Shown piece by piece: positions 28,126 through 37,710 of a stretch of 64,000 bases of DNA. The notes beneath the pieces are model-generated. The model was not told the origin of the DNA. It saw only the letters and a program-made list of their open reading frames with translations, and did not search any database. The DNA is from a virus. Lineage: Duplodnaviria; Heunggongvirae; Uroviricota; Caudoviricetes. A program made the translations under genes and the position numbers. The first letter of the stretch is position 1. Each line of letters starts with the position of its first letter. The stretch lies in the IMG/VR virus record IMGVR_UViG_2648501802_000002. The stretch is one strand, 5' to 3'.

Positions 28126-28347
28126 GTGGCTACTATCCCTACCCCAGCTCATCCTGAATTTATCTGGCGCTTTTACTCCTGCCAAAAACGTCACTATCAC
28201 TTCGTTATTGCACCGACAGAAGATGAGGCACGTTCTCAGCTTCCGGATGCTCCCTGTATTTTCTCTGCCCGCTTTTCTACCGATTCGCGCAATTCTCTCA
28301 GTTACTGGTGCCTCCCTGTTAACGCTTCTGCTCAGGAGGGACTATGA
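28126..28347 (+). CDS. small protein upstream of and overlapping the antirepressor start (Icd-like position)
   Basis: 73-aa ORF with GTG start and AAAGGAGG RBS. Confidence 0.35.
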   Translation: MATIPTPAHPEFIWRFYSCQKRHYHFVIAPTEDEARSQLPDAPCIFSARFSTDSRNSLSYWCLPVNASAQEGL

Positions 28348-29446
28348 GAACGTCATTAGTCACCCGTGAAGAGATGATCGAGGCAATTGAACAGCACACT
28401 GCCTGTATCAGTACCAGGGATATACCGGGCGTTATTGCCAACTACTTCATGATCACCAAACAACTTTACCGGAGAAAGGACAAATACGCGGTTCACCGCA
28501 TTCTGCTAACCGATATCCGTGAATACCTGCTCGAACAGGGTCATCTGAATTACGCAACCGTCGCAGCCGAAGCACGCAAGGAGGCACACAGAATGAAAGC
28601 AACTAACGTTAAATCAGAAAAAATTTATGCACCTTCAGTTCAGGAATCGGAACTGGTGGTTGTTCAGAATCAGCCGGATGAAATTCCCGTTCTGGAATGG
28701 CAGGGAGTACGTGTCGTGACAACCGAAACTCTTGCTAGAGGGTATGGTGTCGATGAAGCCAATATTCGCAACAATTTGTCTCGCAACCTTGACCGCTTTG
28801 AAGAAGGTAAGCATTACTTTCTTCTAACTGGTTTAAAATTAAGAGAATTTAAGAACAGAGTAACCGGAAGTTACTCTGTTGGTAAGAACGCCAGAAGCCT
28901 TACACTCTGGACAGAGCGCGGCGCTGCACGCATGTCTAAGATCGTGGACACAAATGAAGCATGGGCATTCTTTGAAAAACTGGAAGACAGCTACTTCCGG
29001 CAAAAAGAACAGCAACCGGTTGCAATCCCCCAGACGCTTCCAGAAGCTCTGCGCCTGGCTGCCGAACTGGCTGAACAAAAGAACAGAAAGCCCACCAGCT
29101 AAATCAGCAGCTGGTGGCCGCCGCTCCTAAAGTCGATTTTGCCGACCGGGTATCAGTAGCTAAAGGGATCCTGATTGGGAATTTTGCAAAGGTTGTTGGA
29201 CTTAAGCAAAACGCGCTGTTTGCCTGGTTACGGGAGAACGGCATCCTGATAGCGTCCGGTGGACGTAAAAATGTGCCGTTCCAGCAGTACATCAATGCGG
29301 GGTATTTCACGGTGAAAGAAGTGGTGCTGGATGATGAAGATGGCTACCAGATACGGTTGACGCCTCAATTAACGGGTAAAGGCCAGCAGTGGTTGACGCG
29401 TAAACTGCTCGATGCTGGCTTGTTAAAACCGGTGGCGGCTGAATAA
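28344..29446 (+). pseudogene. antirepressor (N-terminal domain + KilA-C-like domain) split by a frameshift
   Basis: ORFs 28344..29102 and 29114..29446 in different frames; one extra A in the A4 run at 29077-29080 fuses them by hand into about 367 aa. Confidence 0.5.
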
Positions 29447-29478: not shown

Positions 29479-30330
29479 TTATTGCGCGCTTTCGGGGTTG
29501 TCGTTTACTGGCTGCCCCTTCTTGGTTTTACGGCTGCGCGTAACTGATGCGGCTGACTTAACCTTTTTCTCTTCGCGAGTGATGGCAATTTGTTTTTTTA
29601 CATTTTCAATATCTGCCAGGCGATATATTTTTGCTTGCGGCCAGCGGTCGCAGATGATCGGTTCTATAGAGTCATAAAGGCTAAATTTTGCTTTCTCGAA
29701 TTCACCGTTGATGATGATTCCATCACGGAGAGTTTCATCGCAGATAAACACGCCACACAGCGGTACATGGTAACTAACTGATTTACCATCATTGTAGTTA
29801 GGGCTACTGGAGATGTAGTGGACGCGCAGCATTGTTTCGCTAAAGCCGTGTACACGCATACGGAATTTTTCATCCTCCGGGTACTGCCTCATTAGCTCTT
29901 TTGTTGCTTCCAGGTTCTCTATGTATTTCGCACTGTGCTCATTGATCCCCGCGCTTTTTTGGATGCGAATGTCCTTATCAATCAGATGAATAATGCGGCC
30001 AGCGGTCATGTTGACGCTGTTCACAGCTTCTGTCTGATAAGTTGTAACCTTGCGCACACCGCGAAGGATGTTAGGCACTGGATATAAAATAGTCTTTGGG
30101 ATATTGAGGTCTGGGTACTGTTCCAGTTCCCGCGCCATTAAAGTCCATTTATCAATTTCAGCCTGAATGCTGTCAGTTTCTTTGAACGGTAGAACGACAA
30201 CCGGGCGTACAGGACGACCGTCGCTGGCTGTATCAACGTGTTGGGCGCGTGCAACAGCTTTTTTTAGAAAGAGATCCCTGAAGCTGACGAACTCCTGGTA
30301 CAGTTGTTCGCCGTAGACATAATTTATCAT
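29479..30330 (-). CDS. c1: C1 repressor of lysogeny
   Basis: 283-aa ORF, size and N-terminus as remembered for P1 C1; coi directly upstream; operator-like sites flank the operon. Confidence 0.75.
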   Translation of the reverse strand: MINYVYGEQLYQEFVSFRDLFLKKAVARAQHVDTASDGRPVRPVVVLPFKETDSIQAEIDKWTLMARELEQYPDLNIPKTILYPVPNILRGVRKVTTYQTEAVNSVNMTAGRIIHLIDKDIRIQKSAGINEHSAKYIENLEATKELMRQYPEDEKFRMRVHGFSETMLRVHYISSSPNYNDGKSVSYHVPLCGVFICDETLRDGIIINGEFEKAKFSLYDSIEPIICDRWPQAKIYRLADIENVKKQIAITREEKKVKSAASVTRSRKTKKGQPVNDNPESAQ

Positions 30331-30440: not shown

Positions 30441-30650
30441 TTATTGTGAGTCCAACTGGTTAGTTGCCATGAGATATTCGATTGTGTCAGTGAGGTCATC
30501 CAGGTCGTCTTGGGTGATGCGGTACTCCTGATTGGATATCTTTGAGTAGTGTTCAGCAATGGCGCGGGCAGCGTCGGTTTCGGCAGGGTCTACAGATAAA
30601 GCGTTAGAGCAATGTCTAACGTCGTCGATGGTTGGTTGAATGAAAGCCAT
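30441..30650 (-). CDS. coi: C1 inactivator Coi
   Basis: 69-aa ORF immediately upstream of c1 on the same strand. Confidence 0.65.
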   Translation of the reverse strand: MAFIQPTIDDVRHCSNALSVDPAETDAARAIAEHYSKISNQEYRITQDDLDDLTDTIEYLMATNQLDSQ

Positions 30651-30905: not shown

Positions 30906-30959
30906 TGTCAAACAACTATGAAAAACAATCCAGTTTTTGTTTGATATTTATGGTGACAT

Positions 30960-31271
30960 ATGAGAAAGGATTTCAACATCGACGGAAAATATGTAGTGCT
31001 GTCTGTAAGCACTAATATTCAGTCGCCAGCCGTCATTGTCACTGTAAAGCTGAGCGATAGAATGCCTGATATTGACTCAATATCCGTTGCGTTCCCTGTC
31101 AAAAGTATGCGTGGTGCTGAACATTTCGTGATGAATGCCACCGAGGAAGAAGCACGGCGCGGTTTTGCTAAAGTAGTGTCTGACTTTGGCGAACTCTTGG
31201 ATAAGGTTAACAATGTCCTTTCAATCAGTTCAGCAAGGTCCAAAGCGTTAACAGCTTCCATGATGAAATAA
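30960..31271 (+). CDS. hypothetical protein
   Basis: 103-aa ORF. Confidence 0.3.
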   Translation: MRKDFNIDGKYVVLSVSTNIQSPAVIVTVKLSDRMPDIDSISVAFPVKSMRGAEHFVMNATEEEARRGFAKVVSDFGELLDKVNNVLSISSARSKALTASMMK

Positions 31272-31398
31272 AAAAAGCCTGGCAAGGAACCAGGCTGCAC
31301 AAAAGAGCGGGTTTGTGTTCCGCATCCAATCAATCAGAAAGGAGTATAGCACATAGATACTAAAGTGAAAAAATGTGACTGAAGATAAACAATATAAC

Positions 31399-31415
31399 AT
31401 TGCTCTAATTGATTG
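31399..31415 (+). promoter_or_regulatory. C1-operator-like site (14/17)
   Basis: ATTGCTCTAATTGATTG. Confidence 0.4.
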
Positions 31416-31619
31416 TTATAATTGAGCCGTGGCGTTAGTCAACTACGAAGACGTGGCCATTACCTACTTAACCAGTTCCGCCAGGGCAGCAGAGTAGGTT
31501 TCATCTCGGATGTACCATGCCTGCATGTTTTCCAGAGAAGCCCGCGAGGTTCCCGGACAGGACTCTGCCATTGCGATAGATTAAATGCAATAACCTAAAA
31601 GCGATAACGTGGTGGAAAA

Positions 31620-32259
31620 ATGTTCATCAGAGCTTATTTAAGGGCATCAACGGAAGATCAGTTTGCCGATCGGGCAAAAGAGATGCTGGGGCAGTTTGTT
31701 CAGGAGCGGGGACATAAAATAGCCAGTTACTACCGGGAGAACATAAGCGGTACAAAACTCGACCGCCGGAACTGGGACGCTTACTGATGGACAGCCACCG
31801 CAATGATATTTTACTGGTCGAGCAAATTGACCGCCTGACCCGTCTGAGTAACAGTGACTGGATTACGCTGAAAAAGCAGATAGAACAACACGAACTGCGG
31901 ATTGTCGCCTGGATGTATCCACCTCATGGCAGGCGCTGTCAGATAAAGACCCTTCGCAGGCTGACCCAATCACCCGCGCCGTGATAACCGCCATCAATAA
32001 CATGCTTATCGACCTGATGGCCGCGATGTCGCATAAGGACTGGCTGAGCCGTCGCCAACGGCAACAACAGGGAATTGAACGGGCTCATACGCTGGGTAAA
32101 TACCGGGGATAACAGGCCGATCAGGAACGGCATCAGAAAGTCCTGTACTACTGGCAGGTCAAGAAACTAAGTATCCATGAAACGGCAGATGCGACAGGGT
32201 ACAGTCCTTCACAGATATGCCGCATTCAAGCCCTTTATAGAGAGCCTGAATCGGAATAA
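31620..32259 (+). pseudogene. serine recombinase (resolvase/invertase family), decayed
   Basis: Starts MFIRAYLRASTEDQ (catalytic Ser motif); two single-base losses in C-runs (about 31762 and 31908) and an in-frame TAA before the C-terminal HTH. Confidence 0.6.
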
Positions 32260-32365
32260 AAAGTAGCCCAGGCGTTAATGGATTACCTTTCCAGGCTAAG
32301 CTCATTGCTCCTGTCAGATACGCAGCCCTGCCTGTAATAATACAGACTGGGCAATGTGTTGCCAC

Positions 32366-32767
32366 TCAGGCTGACAACTGTCGGAGGATATCCGCTGTAT
32401 TATAATGAGCCCGTTTTTCTATATATTTCCCGTCTTTCAGAGTGATCATAAACATCAGAGAAAAGCGCACTTTCCTGCCGCTGGCAGGATGCCCAAGGAA
32501 TTCACGGGTCTGCACGCCTTCAAAGATAAGATAGCAGGCGACTTTATCGTCTCTGGCAAAGATTTCGTGGATACGCATTGTAAATCCCGGAAAAGCATCC
32601 ATATGGCCTTTTTCCTGTACGATAAACTGCTCACTGTTCAGCGGTGTATCCACCTGAGAATAGAATTTAAAATCCGGATGGCAGAGGTTTTTCACCTCAT
32701 CATATTTATTTTCTTCAATCAGACGATAAAACTTTTTAACCGTTTTGATATTTTCTTAAACAGACAT
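32366..32767 (-). pseudogene. SnoaL-like / NTF2-fold protein with premature stop at codon 4
   Basis: GAGGTG RBS then ATG TCT GTT TAA (stop at 32756-32758), frame stays open into the annotated ORF from GTG at 32695. Confidence 0.5.
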
Positions 32768-32775
32768 ATTGCACC

Positions 32776-33765
32776 TCATTTTTCAGTTTCTTTACCTGCC
32801 GGAATATTGCCTTCCGGCGTTCCGTTAAATGTTTTTCGCCATTCACTGGGACTGACTCCCATCCGCTGCCGGAATATCTGCCGGAAAGTAATGGTGGACT
32901 GAAAGCCTGCCAGTTCGGCAACCCGCTCCACTGCAATATCTGTACTTTCCAGCAGTTCCTGACTCCGCCGGAGACGCTCTGTGGTGATCCACTCCCAGAC
33001 CGTCATTCCTGTGGCCGAATGAAAATGGCGTGTAAGCGTTCTTCGGCTCATGGAGGCTAAATGGGCCAGAGTGTCAATATCATGTGGTAATCCCAGATTT
33101 GCGGACAGGTATTCCAGCAGCTGGTTTATGCGGTTATCGGACGTACTTTTGGGAATAAGCAGTTGCCGGTACTGTGCCTGTCCGCCTTCCCGGTAAGGAG
33201 GAGCAACCATCCGGCGGGCTATTTGATTAGCCGTATATCTGCCCAGGCGTTGCCGGATCACATGGAGACAACAGTCCAGTGCTGCGGCTGTACCGGCTGA
33301 GGTGATAATCCGCTCGTCCTCAACATAAAGCACGTTCACGTCCAGATGAACCGCCGGGAAAAGCATCTGGAAATCCCGTTCAGCCTCCCAGTGCGTGGCC
33401 GCCCGTTTACCATCCAGCAGACCGGTGTAAGCCAGAACAAAACTCCCCAGGCACAGGCCCACCACCTGAGCTCCATTTTTCCAGGCTGCAACCAGGGCAC
33501 TGAGCAGAGTTTCAGAAGGCCTTTCATGGATGTGTTTCCAGAAAGGAATAATAACGATATCGGCCTCTGCCAGTGCATCAAGCCCGTATTCTGCCCTCAT
33601 CGCCGTACCTTCAGCAGACCAGATAAGCCCGGGCTCTTCCGCACATACCCGGCGGCTGAAGAGGGCCTTCCCTTCCAGTATCTCCCCGAACAGGATTAAT
33701 GGAACGGAGACATGAAATGTACTGAACCCTTCGGTGATCACTATAGCGACAGTGATGGTGGACAT
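32776..33765 (-). CDS. GlxA-like transcriptional regulator (DJ-1/PfpI domain + AraC HTH)
   Basis: 329-aa ORF; N-terminal DJ-1-like region and C-terminal AraC-type HTH. Confidence 0.6.
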   Translation of the reverse strand: MSTITVAIVITEGFSTFHVSVPLILFGEILEGKALFSRRVCAEEPGLIWSAEGTAMRAEYGLDALAEADIVIIPFWKHIHERPSETLLSALVAAWKNGAQVVGLCLGSFVLAYTGLLDGKRAATHWEAERDFQMLFPAVHLDVNVLYVEDERIITSAGTAAALDCCLHVIRQRLGRYTANQIARRMVAPPYREGGQAQYRQLLIPKSTSDNRINQLLEYLSANLGLPHDIDTLAHLASMSRRTLTRHFHSATGMTVWEWITTERLRRSQELLESTDIAVERVAELAGFQSTITFRQIFRQRMGVSPSEWRKTFNGTPEGNIPAGKETEK

Positions 33766-33780
33766 GCCATGGCCTCCGGG

Positions 33781-34557
33781 TTAAATCGTAACTGATTCAC
33801 CATCAGCAGGAGCGACAACTGACGCCTGGATCTGGTTATCGCGGGCATATTCCAGCAGTTCCTGACGGGTCAGCAGACAGTGGTTTACGGCCTCCATGTG
33901 CGTTGCCACAATCAGTGCCTCTGGTACGATACGATGGGCTTTCAGGACATCTTCCCTGCCGAAAATAATGGGGCCGAATCCGAGAACATGCGCCCAGCCC
34001 GTATTCATAATAACGACGCCAGGATTGAACCGACGTAAATTATCCTCTACAGCCTTGATCCAGATGGTATCCCCAACCAGATAGAGCGTTTTTTCGGACG
34101 GATGCTGGAAGACCACCCCACAGGCATCCCCAAGAATTGCTGCGAGTTGCGGGTTAGCATAGGCTTCGTCCGAACCATGCTGACAAACGGTTTTAATAAG
34201 TGAAATTTCGCCAAATGTGCTTTTGTCAGACAGAATAACAAGGTTGCTGAAGCCCTGGGAACGCAGGATCTTTTCATCATGTTCATTCTGAACATAAATC
34301 AGTTTATCTTTCGGGATGTGCGCAACAGCCGCTTCATCCCAGTGGTCAGGGTGTGTGTGGGTGACAATAATGGCATCCACATCCAGCAGTACATCAAGGT
34401 CAAAAGGCAGCTCAGTCATCGGGATGCGGATATCTGACCGGGCCGTTCCTTCGAATCCCGGATAGGCTTCTTTTTTCGCAAGCATCGGATCGACAAGAAA
34501 TTTTTTACCAGCGTAAGAAATGAGTTGTGTGGCGTTACGTACCTGGATGATCTTCAT
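33781..34557 (-). CDS. MBL-fold metallo-hydrolase
   Basis: 258-aa ORF with THTHPDHWD (HxHxDH metal-binding motif). Confidence 0.6.
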   Translation of the reverse strand: MKIIQVRNATQLISYAGKKFLVDPMLAKKEAYPGFEGTARSDIRIPMTELPFDLDVLLDVDAIIVTHTHPDHWDEAAVAHIPKDKLIYVQNEHDEKILRSQGFSNLVILSDKSTFGEISLIKTVCQHGSDEAYANPQLAAILGDACGVVFQHPSEKTLYLVGDTIWIKAVEDNLRRFNPGVVIMNTGWAHVLGFGPIIFGREDVLKAHRIVPEALIVATHMEAVNHCLLTRQELLEYARDNQIQASVVAPADGESVTI

Positions 34558-34772
34558 TTTAGCAAGTCCTGTATTGGTTAATAACCATCAGAGCCATATC
34601 ATGATGGCCTAATGTGATAATTATGATTAAATCAGGCCTGCCTGCCACTGAAATAATGCCATATTTGGATGATATCAGGCCATTCTTCTGGCTCTCAGGT
34701 TTCAGGAATATGTCTGCTGAAAGCGGGTACAGATCTGACGCATTGAAGGGAAGTATCGTCCTTTAAGGCTTA

Positions 34773-35162
34773 TTGATGTCAGCCAGTACAAAAAATCATC
34801 TTAACGTACAATATCTTCCGTTTCCCAAACGGAGCCCACCAACGACGGAGGAACGGCGCATCGCCAATGCTCTTGGCGCTCTCCCCTGCATTGCCTGCTA
34901 TATGCCTGGAGTAATATCTAATGAGGTGTCTCTGAACCATATCGCCGGTCGTACCGCGCCGGGTTGTCACAAAAAGCAATTGCCACTTTGTAGATGGCAC
35001 CACCAGCATGCAGCACCGGCTGAAGTAAGAGAAAAATACCCCTGGCTGGTCCCTGTTCATGCCGATGGTGTGGTTGGAGGCAAGAAAGAATTCACCTTGC
35101 TGAACAAGTCAGAGATGGAGTTGCTGGCTGACGCCTATGAAATGGCAAACGTCATGCACTAA
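34773..35162 (+). CDS. HNH-motif protein (Ref-like position)
   Basis: 129-aa ORF with CIAC...NHIAG...CRWHH Cys/His pattern; precedes a Mat-position gene. Confidence 0.35.
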   Translation: MMSASTKNHLNVQYLPFPKRSPPTTEERRIANALGALPCIACYMPGVISNEVSLNHIAGRTAPGCHKKQLPLCRWHHQHAAPAEVREKYPWLVPVHADGVVGGKKEFTLLNKSEMELLADAYEMANVMH

Positions 35163-36049: not shown

Positions 36050-36739
36050 TCATAAATCTGATAGCCACTTACTATCTATGGACTCAATCTCCGTCAGCGG
36101 AATTGATGGGAAAAAATATCCCTGAGCGCCCCATAGCCCTATTCCTTTTGATAACTTATGACAATCAATGTTTTCGACGCCTTCAGCGATGATATTCGGA
36201 CATAACTTTTTTAAATTGCTAATAATGACATCAAAATGAGGCTTAATCATATGCTCTTGAAAAAATGACTTATCAAGTTTTATTGCATGGTATTTATTTT
36301 TAATTAATGCTTTCATGGTGGCGTTACCACTTCCAAAATCATCAAGCCAAACATAGTCTGTCAAAGTCAGGAGAAAGGGTATAACGTAATCCTCATCGCT
36401 TAAATCAGGGTAGTTTTCTGATATCTCAAGAACTATAAATTTATTGTTTTTAATTAACTCTTGAGTTTGTTTATTACTGTATATATATATACATGTATCA
36501 TAATCTACATTAATAGAACATAGTATATTATGGCGTTCAAAAAAACACTTGTATTTCATTATTGTGTTAAGTTGTGATTTAAGTAAATTAATCTTCATCT
36601 TATTGGTAAACATACCCAATACTCTTTGAGTAGGAAGAGCGACACCATCTTTGGAGCGAAATCTGCTTAACACTTCTACTGCAATCAACTTGTTCGTGCT
36701 CGTAGAAATGATTGGTTCTGCAATGTAGATAACTTCCAT
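36050..36739 (-). CDS. EAL-domain protein (c-di-GMP phosphodiesterase-like)
   Basis: 229-aa ORF with EVLSRF, DDFGSG, KLDKSF and AQGYFF motifs; AT-rich. Confidence 0.6.
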   Translation of the reverse strand: MEVIYIAEPIISTSTNKLIAVEVLSRFRSKDGVALPTQRVLGMFTNKMKINLLKSQLNTIMKYKCFFERHNILCSINVDYDTCIYIYSNKQTQELIKNNKFIVLEISENYPDLSDEDYVIPFLLTLTDYVWLDDFGSGNATMKALIKNKYHAIKLDKSFFQEHMIKPHFDVIISNLKKLCPNIIAEGVENIDCHKLSKGIGLWGAQGYFFPSIPLTEIESIDSKWLSDL

Positions 36740-36975
36740 ATCCCCACCCTCAAGTTTTAAATTGCTTGATTTTGCTCAGATAACGAGCCCCCTATATTTA
36801 CAAGAGTTACACTCTACTTTTGTAGATTAAATGTCAATTTATTTGTTTGTGATAATATTGAAAAATATCAATTAAAACAATCAAAAAATGTGACATAAAT
36901 CAATAATTTTATTTTTACACAACTTCTTGATTTCTGAGCCTAGCTATCTCTATTCTTATTCAAAGCCTCTTTAGA

Positions 36976-37710
36976 ATGGTGGTGGCCATGTCAGCAGTTT
37001 GTTACTTCATACTCATAAAGAAACCTATAAGCTTTCAATTTCTTAAGGATTTCTTAATATTAAATTATGGTGATGTGTTGTTGCTTAAGCATTCTGAGCA
37101 TGAATGCTTAAAAATCTATTCAGACAAATATATAGAATTCGAACTCAATGATAATACCGTAAGAAACTATTTATCATGCAACAACAACCATGGAAACCAA
37201 TCGCTGGATAAGTGTCCGCATTTGCTAAAAAAGTCTTTTGCCTATCCTGATTTATTAATCAGGATGATCGATAATATAAGCGATCAAAATCATATCCATT
37301 CTGATTTTAGGGAGGCAGTAACTTTTTCATTACTCTCAATTTTTAATGATGTTGATAACTTTAGAGCATTTCTTACGTCTGGTATGCCCACTTTCTCAGG
37401 GAAAGTGCGCAGCATATTTCTTTCAGATGTATCTAAACACTGGAAACTAAGAGACCTAACCGATTATCTCTACATGAGTGAAAGCTTAATAAAGAAAAAA
37501 CTATTATTGGAAAACACCTCCTTCAGTAAGTTATTACTTGATACACGGATGGCTTTTGCTATTAAATTACTAAAGCAAAATCATCCAGTCAAACAAGTAT
37601 CAGAAAGCTGTGGCTTTAGTAGTACATCGTACTTTGTGTGCCTGTTCAGGCAATATTATAATTGCACGCCACGTGAATATGCAAAACATCAATTATTATC
37701 TGGAAAATAA
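36976..37710 (+). CDS. AraC-family transcriptional regulator
   Basis: 244-aa ORF with C-terminal AraC HTH; AT-rich, divergent from the EAL gene. Confidence 0.6.
   Translation: MVVAMSAVCYFILIKKPISFQFLKDFLILNYGDVLLLKHSEHECLKIYSDKYIEFELNDNTVRNYLSCNNNHGNQSLDKCPHLLKKSFAYPDLLIRMIDNISDQNHIHSDFREAVTFSLLSIFNDVDNFRAFLTSGMPTFSGKVRSIFLSDVSKHWKLRDLTDYLYMSESLIKKKLLLENTSFSKLLLDTRMAFAIKLLKQNHPVKQVSESCGFSSTSYFVCLFRQYYNCTPREYAKHQLLSGK

Follow-up and report, generated by a model that had tools for sequence, protein, structure and literature searches.

Transposons of the Tn3 family (Tn3/Tn21/Tn1721-type) are bounded by 38-bp terminal inverted repeats (IRs) that start with GGG and end with ACGTTAAG, and they encode a DDE transposase of the Tn3 type (TnpA) and a small serine resolvase (TnpR), with the resolution site res between both genes; the cargo lies downstream of tnpR, ahead of the right IR. 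Duplication of 5 bp of the target is a hallmark of the family, and in Tn3 and gamma-delta the crossover subsite of res lies at the tnpA end. Bacteriophage P1 carries the gene order immC-lox-cra-cre-c8-ref-mat; the basic N-terminal 76 residues of its Ref protein are needed for DNA binding and efficient cleavage (PMC4330346). SaxA converts isothiocyanates to amines (PMC7036374, PMC12903958) and carbonyl sulfide (PMC7036374), SaxA-family genes are often found on mobile elements (PMC7036374), and the sax genes of Pseudomonas syringae include a transcriptional regulator, saxC (PMC12903958). The passage of PMC7036374 that cites earlier work on the family describes it as widespread in Enterobacterales, in five clusters that all preserve the catalytic properties. 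We analysed a 64,000-nucleotide stretch of DNA (the window) from a P1-like phage-plasmid, in which c1, coi, imcB, imcA, c8, the 3' part of ref and mat are colinear with P1 (NC_005856) at 92-97% identity. A 3,374-bp insert (31464-34837) stands in its ref gene in place of P1 2027-2312, which hold the promoter P1ref, the ref start and ref codons 1-78. Judged by the homologies given below, the insert is the remnant of a decayed Tn3-family transposon. Very probably, the island is such a transposon lying in ref with a probable isothiocyanate operon, in an element that lost cre/lox independently.

The boundaries of the insert were defined by alignment to P1. In blastn searches, window 30937-31463 matched P1 1495-2026 and the window from 34831 onward matched P1 from 2306 onward; reading of the junction placed the right boundary at 34837/34838, corresponding to P1 2312/2313. 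A first-pass annotation, made from the letters of the sequence, had described a cargo island at 31620-34557 and had proposed the alignment to P1 as the way to find its boundaries and any flanking repeats. The features that it listed were present, but the true island is wider, and one 38-bp terminal IR lies at its right end. The insert and the P1 sequences on both sides of it are composed as follows.

31272..31463, plus strand: P1 c8-ref intergenic region up to P1 2026 (blastn, P1 annotation and promoter scan)
31464..31571, minus strand: internal tnpA fragment of 35 codons, about residues 623-657 of ~995 (NCBIfam transpos_Tn3)
31572..31619, plus strand: tnpR-proximal 48 bp of res (intact transposons are homologous from exactly 31572 onward)
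31620..32259, plus strand: tnpR resolvase pseudogene (alignment to five intact relatives, three-frame tblastn with an intact homologue, and RefSeq)
32366..32767, minus strand: SnoaL-like (ester cyclase/ketosteroid-isomerase-like) passenger gene with a nonsense codon at codon 4 (Pfam SnoaL, E 7e-24)
32776..33765, minus strand: GlxA/FtrA-like regulator (DJ-1_PfpI plus AraC helix-turn-helix, HTH), intact, 329 aa (Pfam)
33781..34557, minus strand: SaxA-family hydrolase of the metallo-beta-lactamase (MBL) fold, intact, 258 aa, with an HTHPDH motif (PDB 6BRM and Pfam)
34558..34799, minus strand: internal part of the transposon ahead of the saxA-like gene, containing two promoter-like sites (promoter scan)
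34800..34837, minus strand: 38-bp terminal IR of the right end, GGGCTCCGTTTGGGAAACGGAAGATATTGTACGTTAAG (30/38 identical to both IRs of the L008/L009 elements)
34838..35162, plus strand: 3' remnant of ref, about codons 79-186, with the HNH core (blastn from P1 2306/2313, Pfam and RefSeq)

The 35 tnpA codons matched positions 611-644 of the 954 positions of NCBIfam transpos_Tn3 (E 5e-9). The fragment is annotated as 'Tn3 family transposase' in NZ_CP048027 and maps within tnpA of the transposons L008, L009, L010 and L060, and both of its edges are deletion end points. The intact tnpA-tnpR spacer, which contains the full res, is 167 bp long; about 120 bp on its tnpA side have been deleted from the window. 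The adjoining tnpR pseudogene was 98.8% identical at the nucleotide level to the region of L060 bearing an intact 213-aa TnpR, and it had three lesions: one C gone from CCC, leaving CC at 31766-31767 (frameshift 1); one A gone between 31906 and 31907 (frameshift 2); and AAA changed to TAA at 32110-32112. The three-frame match to an intact homologue agreed with the decayed serine recombinase and in-frame TAA of the first-pass annotation. That annotation had put two base losses in C-runs, at 31762 and 31908; the C loss stood, but the A loss lies outside a C-run, and the two coordinates were a few bases off. Its suggestion that the cargo arrived on an element of which the recombinase is a leftover was borne out by the assignment to TnpR of the Tn3 family, the tnpA fragment, the partial res, the IR and a full-length copy elsewhere.

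The IR at 34800-34837 has the orientation of a right end relative to the L008/L009 elements. The window copy has no left IR; its left end is a deletion end point, and the left transposon end was deleted in every P1-like copy examined. Unlike an intact Tn3-family transposon, the window copy thus consists of one IR, 35 tnpA codons, 48 bp of res, a dead tnpR and the cargo. About 1,200 plasmids carried homologues of the recombinase gene at ~85-92% nucleotide identity. Three of them were inspected closely, and in all three the homologue was an intact tnpR, transcribed divergently from a neighbouring ~3-kb 'Tn3 family transposase' gene, and the cargo downstream varied. The closest intact relatives of the window transposon carry other cargo (frmRAB, cadR/P-type ATPase and PAAR genes); no name for the window transposon was found.

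A metagenome scan with the 38-bp IR yielded 45 loci, and complete and partly deleted copies of the transposon were among its relatives. A full-length copy, 94-99% identical to the window, was found on metagenome contig OGOU01000478.1 (L045 and L060). Two parts of it were read: one with the right IR (IRR) and the MBL gene, and the other with the snoaL 3' end, an intact 213-aa TnpR, the full res, an intact ~995-aa TnpA and the left IR (IRL). L050 is an intermediate, which has the same internal tnpA/res deletion and an island 99.8% identical to that of the window, and which keeps the C-terminal 369 tnpA codons and the IRL; its left flank differs from that of the window. A sibling of 90% identity, L018, has an intact tnpR, a full res and an intact snoaL, and the region upstream of its saxA-like gene is conserved with the window as far as 34746. 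L048 is a 2.9-kb mini-element (4471-7349) between the same IRs, with a tnpR fragment and the 5-bp target duplication GGATA, as expected of this family. Both IRs were seen in L045/L060, L050/L066 and L048. IncF and IncK plasmids carried further derivatives; around the IncK copy, L066, no target duplication was seen.

Compared with P1, ref of the window is interrupted and has lost its promoters and N-terminal 78 codons. The equivalent of P2ref/Oref, a promoter-like site at 31394-31422, now points into the transposon remnant. An open frame (34773-35162) begins within the transposon end and runs in frame into ref codons ~79-186. The gene that had been read as occupying the Ref position is indeed ref sequence, but it is a 3' remnant read from the transposon end and not the whole gene. 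Its HNH core is complete (positions 1-102 of 103 of Pfam RecA_dep_nuc); transposon sequence stands in place of both ref promoters and of the ~78 residues at the N-terminus, and RefSeq labels the remnant in identical islands as 'Ref family protein, missing N-terminus'. Ref of the window is most likely inactive.

Both intact cargo genes, which had been named from the translations as a DJ-1/AraC regulator and an MBL hydrolase, were confirmed by Pfam. The hydrolase aligned over residues 1-256 of 258 with residues 1-257 of SaxA (PDB 6BRM; E 2.3e-92, 312 bits); 137 of 256 positions were identical (53.5%), and its HTHPDH motif was aligned to HTHTDH. The next solved relative was 3RPC, an uncharacterised hydrolase. 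The regulator scored 312 bits against NCBIfam FtrA, under the 425-bit cutoff. Homologues of the hydrolase at 70-79% identity are chromosomal in Photorhabdus (the closest, 79%), Erwinia, Yersinia and Pectobacterium. A DJ-1_PfpI/AraC gene came directly after the hydrolase gene in all eight loci inspected (six distinct contexts), and this pairing is kept in Photorhabdus, Yersinia, Pectobacterium and Escherichia coli plasmids, with the SnoaL-like gene as an occasional third member. In a search for a chromosomal donor, a protein scan of genome contigs with the regulator returned only a 39%-identical Streptosporangium match. The gaps between the three leftward genes are 15 and 8 bp, and we infer that they form a leftward operon expressed from the 242-bp region beside the IR, where the two promoter-like sites are located.

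The module resembles the sax loci of Pseudomonas syringae and Pectobacterium in its full-length SaxA homology, its HxHxDH metal motif, its mobile carriage and its adjacent AraC-type regulator, the likeness to SaxC being one of domain and adjacency. It differs from them in its host, which is E. coli, on a phage-plasmid, and not a plant pathogen or insect-gut isolate, and in being without the efflux genes saxD/F/G; it also has a SnoaL-like gene, unlike published sax descriptions. The hydrolase is a probable isothiocyanate hydrolase, suggesting that the cargo would serve isothiocyanate detoxification under the control of the DJ-1/AraC protein. RefSeq gives the three genes the generic names 'MBL fold metallo-hydrolase / GlxA family regulator / ester cyclase', and no description of the island was found in the literature on SaxA with phage-plasmids or on p12579_1. 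The SaxA/isothiocyanate reading of the cargo is a modestly new point.

The third cargo gene, snoaL, has the ribosome-binding site GAGGTG and an ATG (32767-32765), followed by a TAA at codon 4 (32758-32756), as the first-pass annotation had read it. The stop arose by a G-to-T change: intact alleles (pRF148-1 and pTET-GZEC065) have GAA at this codon, and the intact SnoaL of pTET-GZEC065 has 133 aa. In the window the frame is open from a GTG at 32695 (109 aa), or for 127 aa from a non-canonical ATC that RefSeq uses as the start. The window allele therefore does not encode a complete SnoaL domain from its own start codon, and the predicted products could only be shorter ones.

RefSeq contains the stop-bearing gene in two forms, a 127-aa protein from the ATC (WP_198290423.1) and a 109-aa protein from the GTG (WP_000792637.1). 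This double annotation, seen at L007 2924-3307 (NC_017653.1), hides the nonsense mutation. In pRF148-1 (L005), an IncF/X1 tet(X) plasmid, the end of an IS3-family element (TGATCTTACCCAGC...) interrupts the snoaL 3' end. The break of homology with pRF148-1 at 32379/32380 had been considered as a module boundary and was rejected, as it corresponds to this IS3-like insertion. An IS3-family end also interrupts tnpA codon 17 in the sibling copy L018 (3660-3798).

Neither loxP nor cre was found in the window. No loxP was present at up to three mismatches, and tblastn gave no homologue of P1 Cre or Cra (E < 0.4) in the 64 kb. This agreed with the first-pass annotation, which had seen no cre-sized ORF or loxP-like sequence between coi and the Ref-position gene, and no cre/lox homologue turned up elsewhere in the window. 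Relative to P1, 1,606 bp are missing (P1 94692-94800 plus 1-1497), so that P1 94691 is joined to P1 1498. The junction and the neighbouring P1 genes are listed here.

29479-30330, minus strand: c1 (colinear with P1)
30441-30650: coi (colinear with P1)
to 30843: imcB/imcA (colinear with P1)
30937..30940, no strand: deletion junction with TTTG microhomology (blastn against P1 and L001, alignment of both sides, and P1 feature tables)
30960..31271, plus strand: c8 (lysogeny establishment), intact, 103-aa open reading frame (ORF; colinear with P1 1518-1829)
35241-35996: mat (colinear with P1)

The deletion extends from 92 bp left of lox to 30 bp past the cre stop codon. It removed Oc1e, P4cre, loxP, the P2coi/LexA site, cra, all cre promoters, cre and the predicted c8 promoter (Pc8). 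No hybrid lox site was left at the junction, indicating that the deletion was not made by Cre. The junction was absent from the 703 PLSDB records and the 695 E. coli genomes matching its flanks, and the lox-cra-cre deletion is private to the window element. The cre junction lies ~520 bp upstream of the island, with c8 in between. Four relatives whose cre region was inspected (L001, L002, p12579_1 and pTET-GZEC065) all have the same island plus intact cra and cre. Thus, the loss of cre/lox is unrelated to the island and is a separate illegitimate event at a microhomology. The first-pass annotation had put the island where P1 carries cre; this did not hold, since the insert is in ref, c8 stands between, and relatives have both the island and cre. 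No dif/cer-like XerCD site was found in the window, and tblastn found no second serine recombinase in it beyond the pseudogene. The window element is without a Cre/lox cyclisation or dimer-resolution system in the visible 64 kb. A naturally cre-less P1 relative is a modestly new point. As a separate observation, the c8 promoter predicted at P1 1394-1425 and the rightward P4cre were both deleted, and c8 now has no annotated promoter upstream.

Four other explanations were weighed against these data. If the frameshifts and stops were sequencing or assembly errors, the genes would really be intact and their frames could be restored by resequencing, as the first-pass annotation had allowed. One tnpR lesion does lie within a short C homopolymer, but the same lesions occur in independent assemblies: the island was 100.0% identical at the full bit score of 6231 in two independently sequenced plasmids, NC_017653.1 (p12579_1) and NZ_AP045806.1, and 100.0% identical at 6226 bits, slightly under the full score and with at most a few differences, in NZ_CP189663.1. 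The same pseudogenes are annotated by RefSeq, which flags the recombinase in identical islands as 'frameshifted; internal stop', and of 84 E. coli records compared with a 61-bp probe centred on the snoaL stop, 61 were identical and 23 differed. The sister lineage represented by pTET-GZEC065 (NZ_CP048027.1) shares frameshift 2 and the tnpR TAA but has neither frameshift 1 nor the snoaL stop; two shared tnpR lesions with a third one absent are the pattern of inheritance. This explanation is very improbable, and the snoaL TAA is an inherited allele, not a sequencing error. The partial set of lesions in pTET-GZEC065 indicated that the decay was stepwise, with the window in a more decayed lineage. 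The cre/lox gap, for its part, could be an assembly artefact or a laboratory deletion and not a natural variant. Its junction is unique among the flank-matching records mentioned above, which speaks for such an origin, but it is clean (a 4-bp microhomology, with neither a scar nor a lox hybrid site), it has no repeats that could collapse an assembly, and the deletion ends ignore the gene boundaries that an engineered deletion usually respects. We consider an artificial origin of the gap unlikely.

With cre and loxP absent from the window and a resolvase-type gene standing ~700 bp downstream of the cre position, it might be thought that the resolvase and res of the island took over dimer resolution after the loss of cre. 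The resolvase gene, however, has two frameshifts and a stop, and of res only the 48 bp nearest tnpR are left, the end with the crossover subsite having been deleted, by analogy with Tn3/gamma-delta. Moreover, the same decayed island sits beside intact cra-cre in all four relatives, and the two events have separate junctions. The tnpR pseudogene and the truncated res are therefore no substitute for Cre/lox, and a takeover is extremely improbable. A better case can be made that the cargo does something other than isothiocyanate detoxification, for example as a lactonase or another hydrolase, on an unknown small molecule, or in antibiotic resistance or anti-phage function. Pfam places the hydrolase in the generic Lactamase_B_2 and no specific NCBIfam model matched it, published accounts of sax loci include no SnoaL-like partner, and possible additional roles of SaxA-family proteins have been noted (PMC7036374). 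On the other hand, SaxA is by far the best solved relative of the hydrolase, over the full length, and the catalytic properties are described as preserved in all five enterobacterial clusters (the same passage of PMC7036374, citing earlier work). PADLOC gave no defence-system match for the cargo and neighbouring genes, and no predicted resistance gene was listed in PLSDB under the island match. Such another function is a real possibility, though we think it the wrong one rather than the right one.

The reading that we prefer, a decayed Tn3-family transposon in ref with a probable isothiocyanate operon and an independent loss of cre/lox, would have the following history. The starting point would be a ~6.4-kb replicative transposon of the Tn3 family with the order IRL-tnpA-res-tnpR-snoaL-like gene-glxA-like regulator-saxA-like hydrolase-IRR. 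An internal deletion would have removed the first ~620 tnpA codons and most of res, the stage represented by L050. With the element present in ref of a P1-like plasmid, a second deletion would have taken the IRL, the last third of tnpA and P1 2027-2312. Frameshift 2 and the stop of tnpR would have followed, then frameshift 1 of tnpR and the snoaL nonsense codon, and last, in the window element only, the lox-cra-cre deletion. The order of the internal deletion and the entry into ref is uncertain because the left flank of L050 differs. The outcome would be a copy that is immobile and decaying, with the hydrolase and the regulator intact. Read leftward from the right end of the transposon, the operon would convert isothiocyanates, which are breakdown products of plant glucosinolates, to amines, as SaxA does.

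Several points weigh against parts of this account. The left IR and the target duplication of the window copy are gone, and transposition into ref is read from one end only; no 5-bp target duplication flanks the full-length copy L045/L060 either. L050 raises the prospect that the element may have been tnpA-defective before it reached ref, and such an arrival would need a transposase in trans or recombination. The operon and its promoter are predictions from sequence, the substrate could differ at 53.5% identity to the crystallised SaxA, and SaxA may have other purposes outside plant pathogens (PMC7036374). A copy of cre might possibly lie on a part of the element beyond the visible 64 kb.

Of 5,426 complete E. 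coli genomes, 69 had at least 80% of the island, as did 60 PLSDB plasmids, and the snoaL-regulator junction was found in 83 E. coli genomes. These genome counts correspond to about one in ten of the 695 E. coli genomes matching the imcA-c8 flank. The listed sources of island-bearing records include many from chicken, duck, goose and pig, and also human ones. In p12579_1 and pTET-GZEC065 the insert of the window is found at the identical site, but cra and cre have been kept, and pTET-GZEC065 represents an earlier stage of decay. The first 25 kb of the window were ~97-98% identical to P1-type plasmids of E. coli and E. albertii in PLSDB, and no PLSDB record was identical to them.

Most of this is ordinary mobile-element biology of a known kind, with accessory genes in a phage-plasmid hotspot and near-identical RefSeq sequences that were already annotated generically. 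A variable region of a common E. coli phage-plasmid family is explained as ordinary transposon decay, the idea of a serine recombinase replacing Cre is corrected, and the cargo now has a testable function, isothiocyanate hydrolysis. With loxP-cra-cre lost in it alone, the window element offers a rare natural test of how far a P1-type plasmid prophage can dispense with Cre/lox. More tentatively, and as a proposal that may well prove wrong, P1-like phage-plasmids could be spreading a working operon of the saxA-like gene and its regulator in gut E. coli of poultry, pigs and humans, and a P1 relative could persist in nature without Cre/lox. If true, the operon might make its bearers fitter on diets with brassica or rapeseed and would be a diet-linked lysogenic-conversion trait not described before for phage-plasmids, which may then carry diet-related detoxification traits besides antibiotic resistance genes.

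Other features of the window and of related loci were also observed. The KilAC-domain antirepressor gene beside c1 (28344-29446) is split into ORFs of 252 aa and 110 aa, with a change of frame near 29030-29081 (tblastn with the intact 372-aa protein of NZ_CP148408); this is either a further decay of the window element or a sequencing error. The stretch from mat to the P1 genes that follow contains, at 36050-37710, two neighbouring genes of low GC content (27-34%): one on the minus strand for a protein with an EAL domain only, and one on the plus strand for an AraC-type HTH regulator. PADLOC gave no match for them. Across 36050-37710 the window aligns with pF404-1 (L002), whose gene table has the EAL gene at the corresponding place and lacks the AraC-type gene. 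In p12579_1 and pZ1323CEC0018-4 a SIR2 gene occupies this site instead, and the region appears to be a second hotspot for cargo.

In metagenomes, many different Tn3-family elements with other cargo are also bounded by the 38-bp IR of the window (L021-L065). In Photorhabdus (L014 and L015), a saxA-like/DJ-1-AraC(/SnoaL) module is located in a different decayed Tn3-family element, with parDE downstream and in the opposite orientation relative to tnpR, suggesting that the saxA-like module was captured independently by two transposons.

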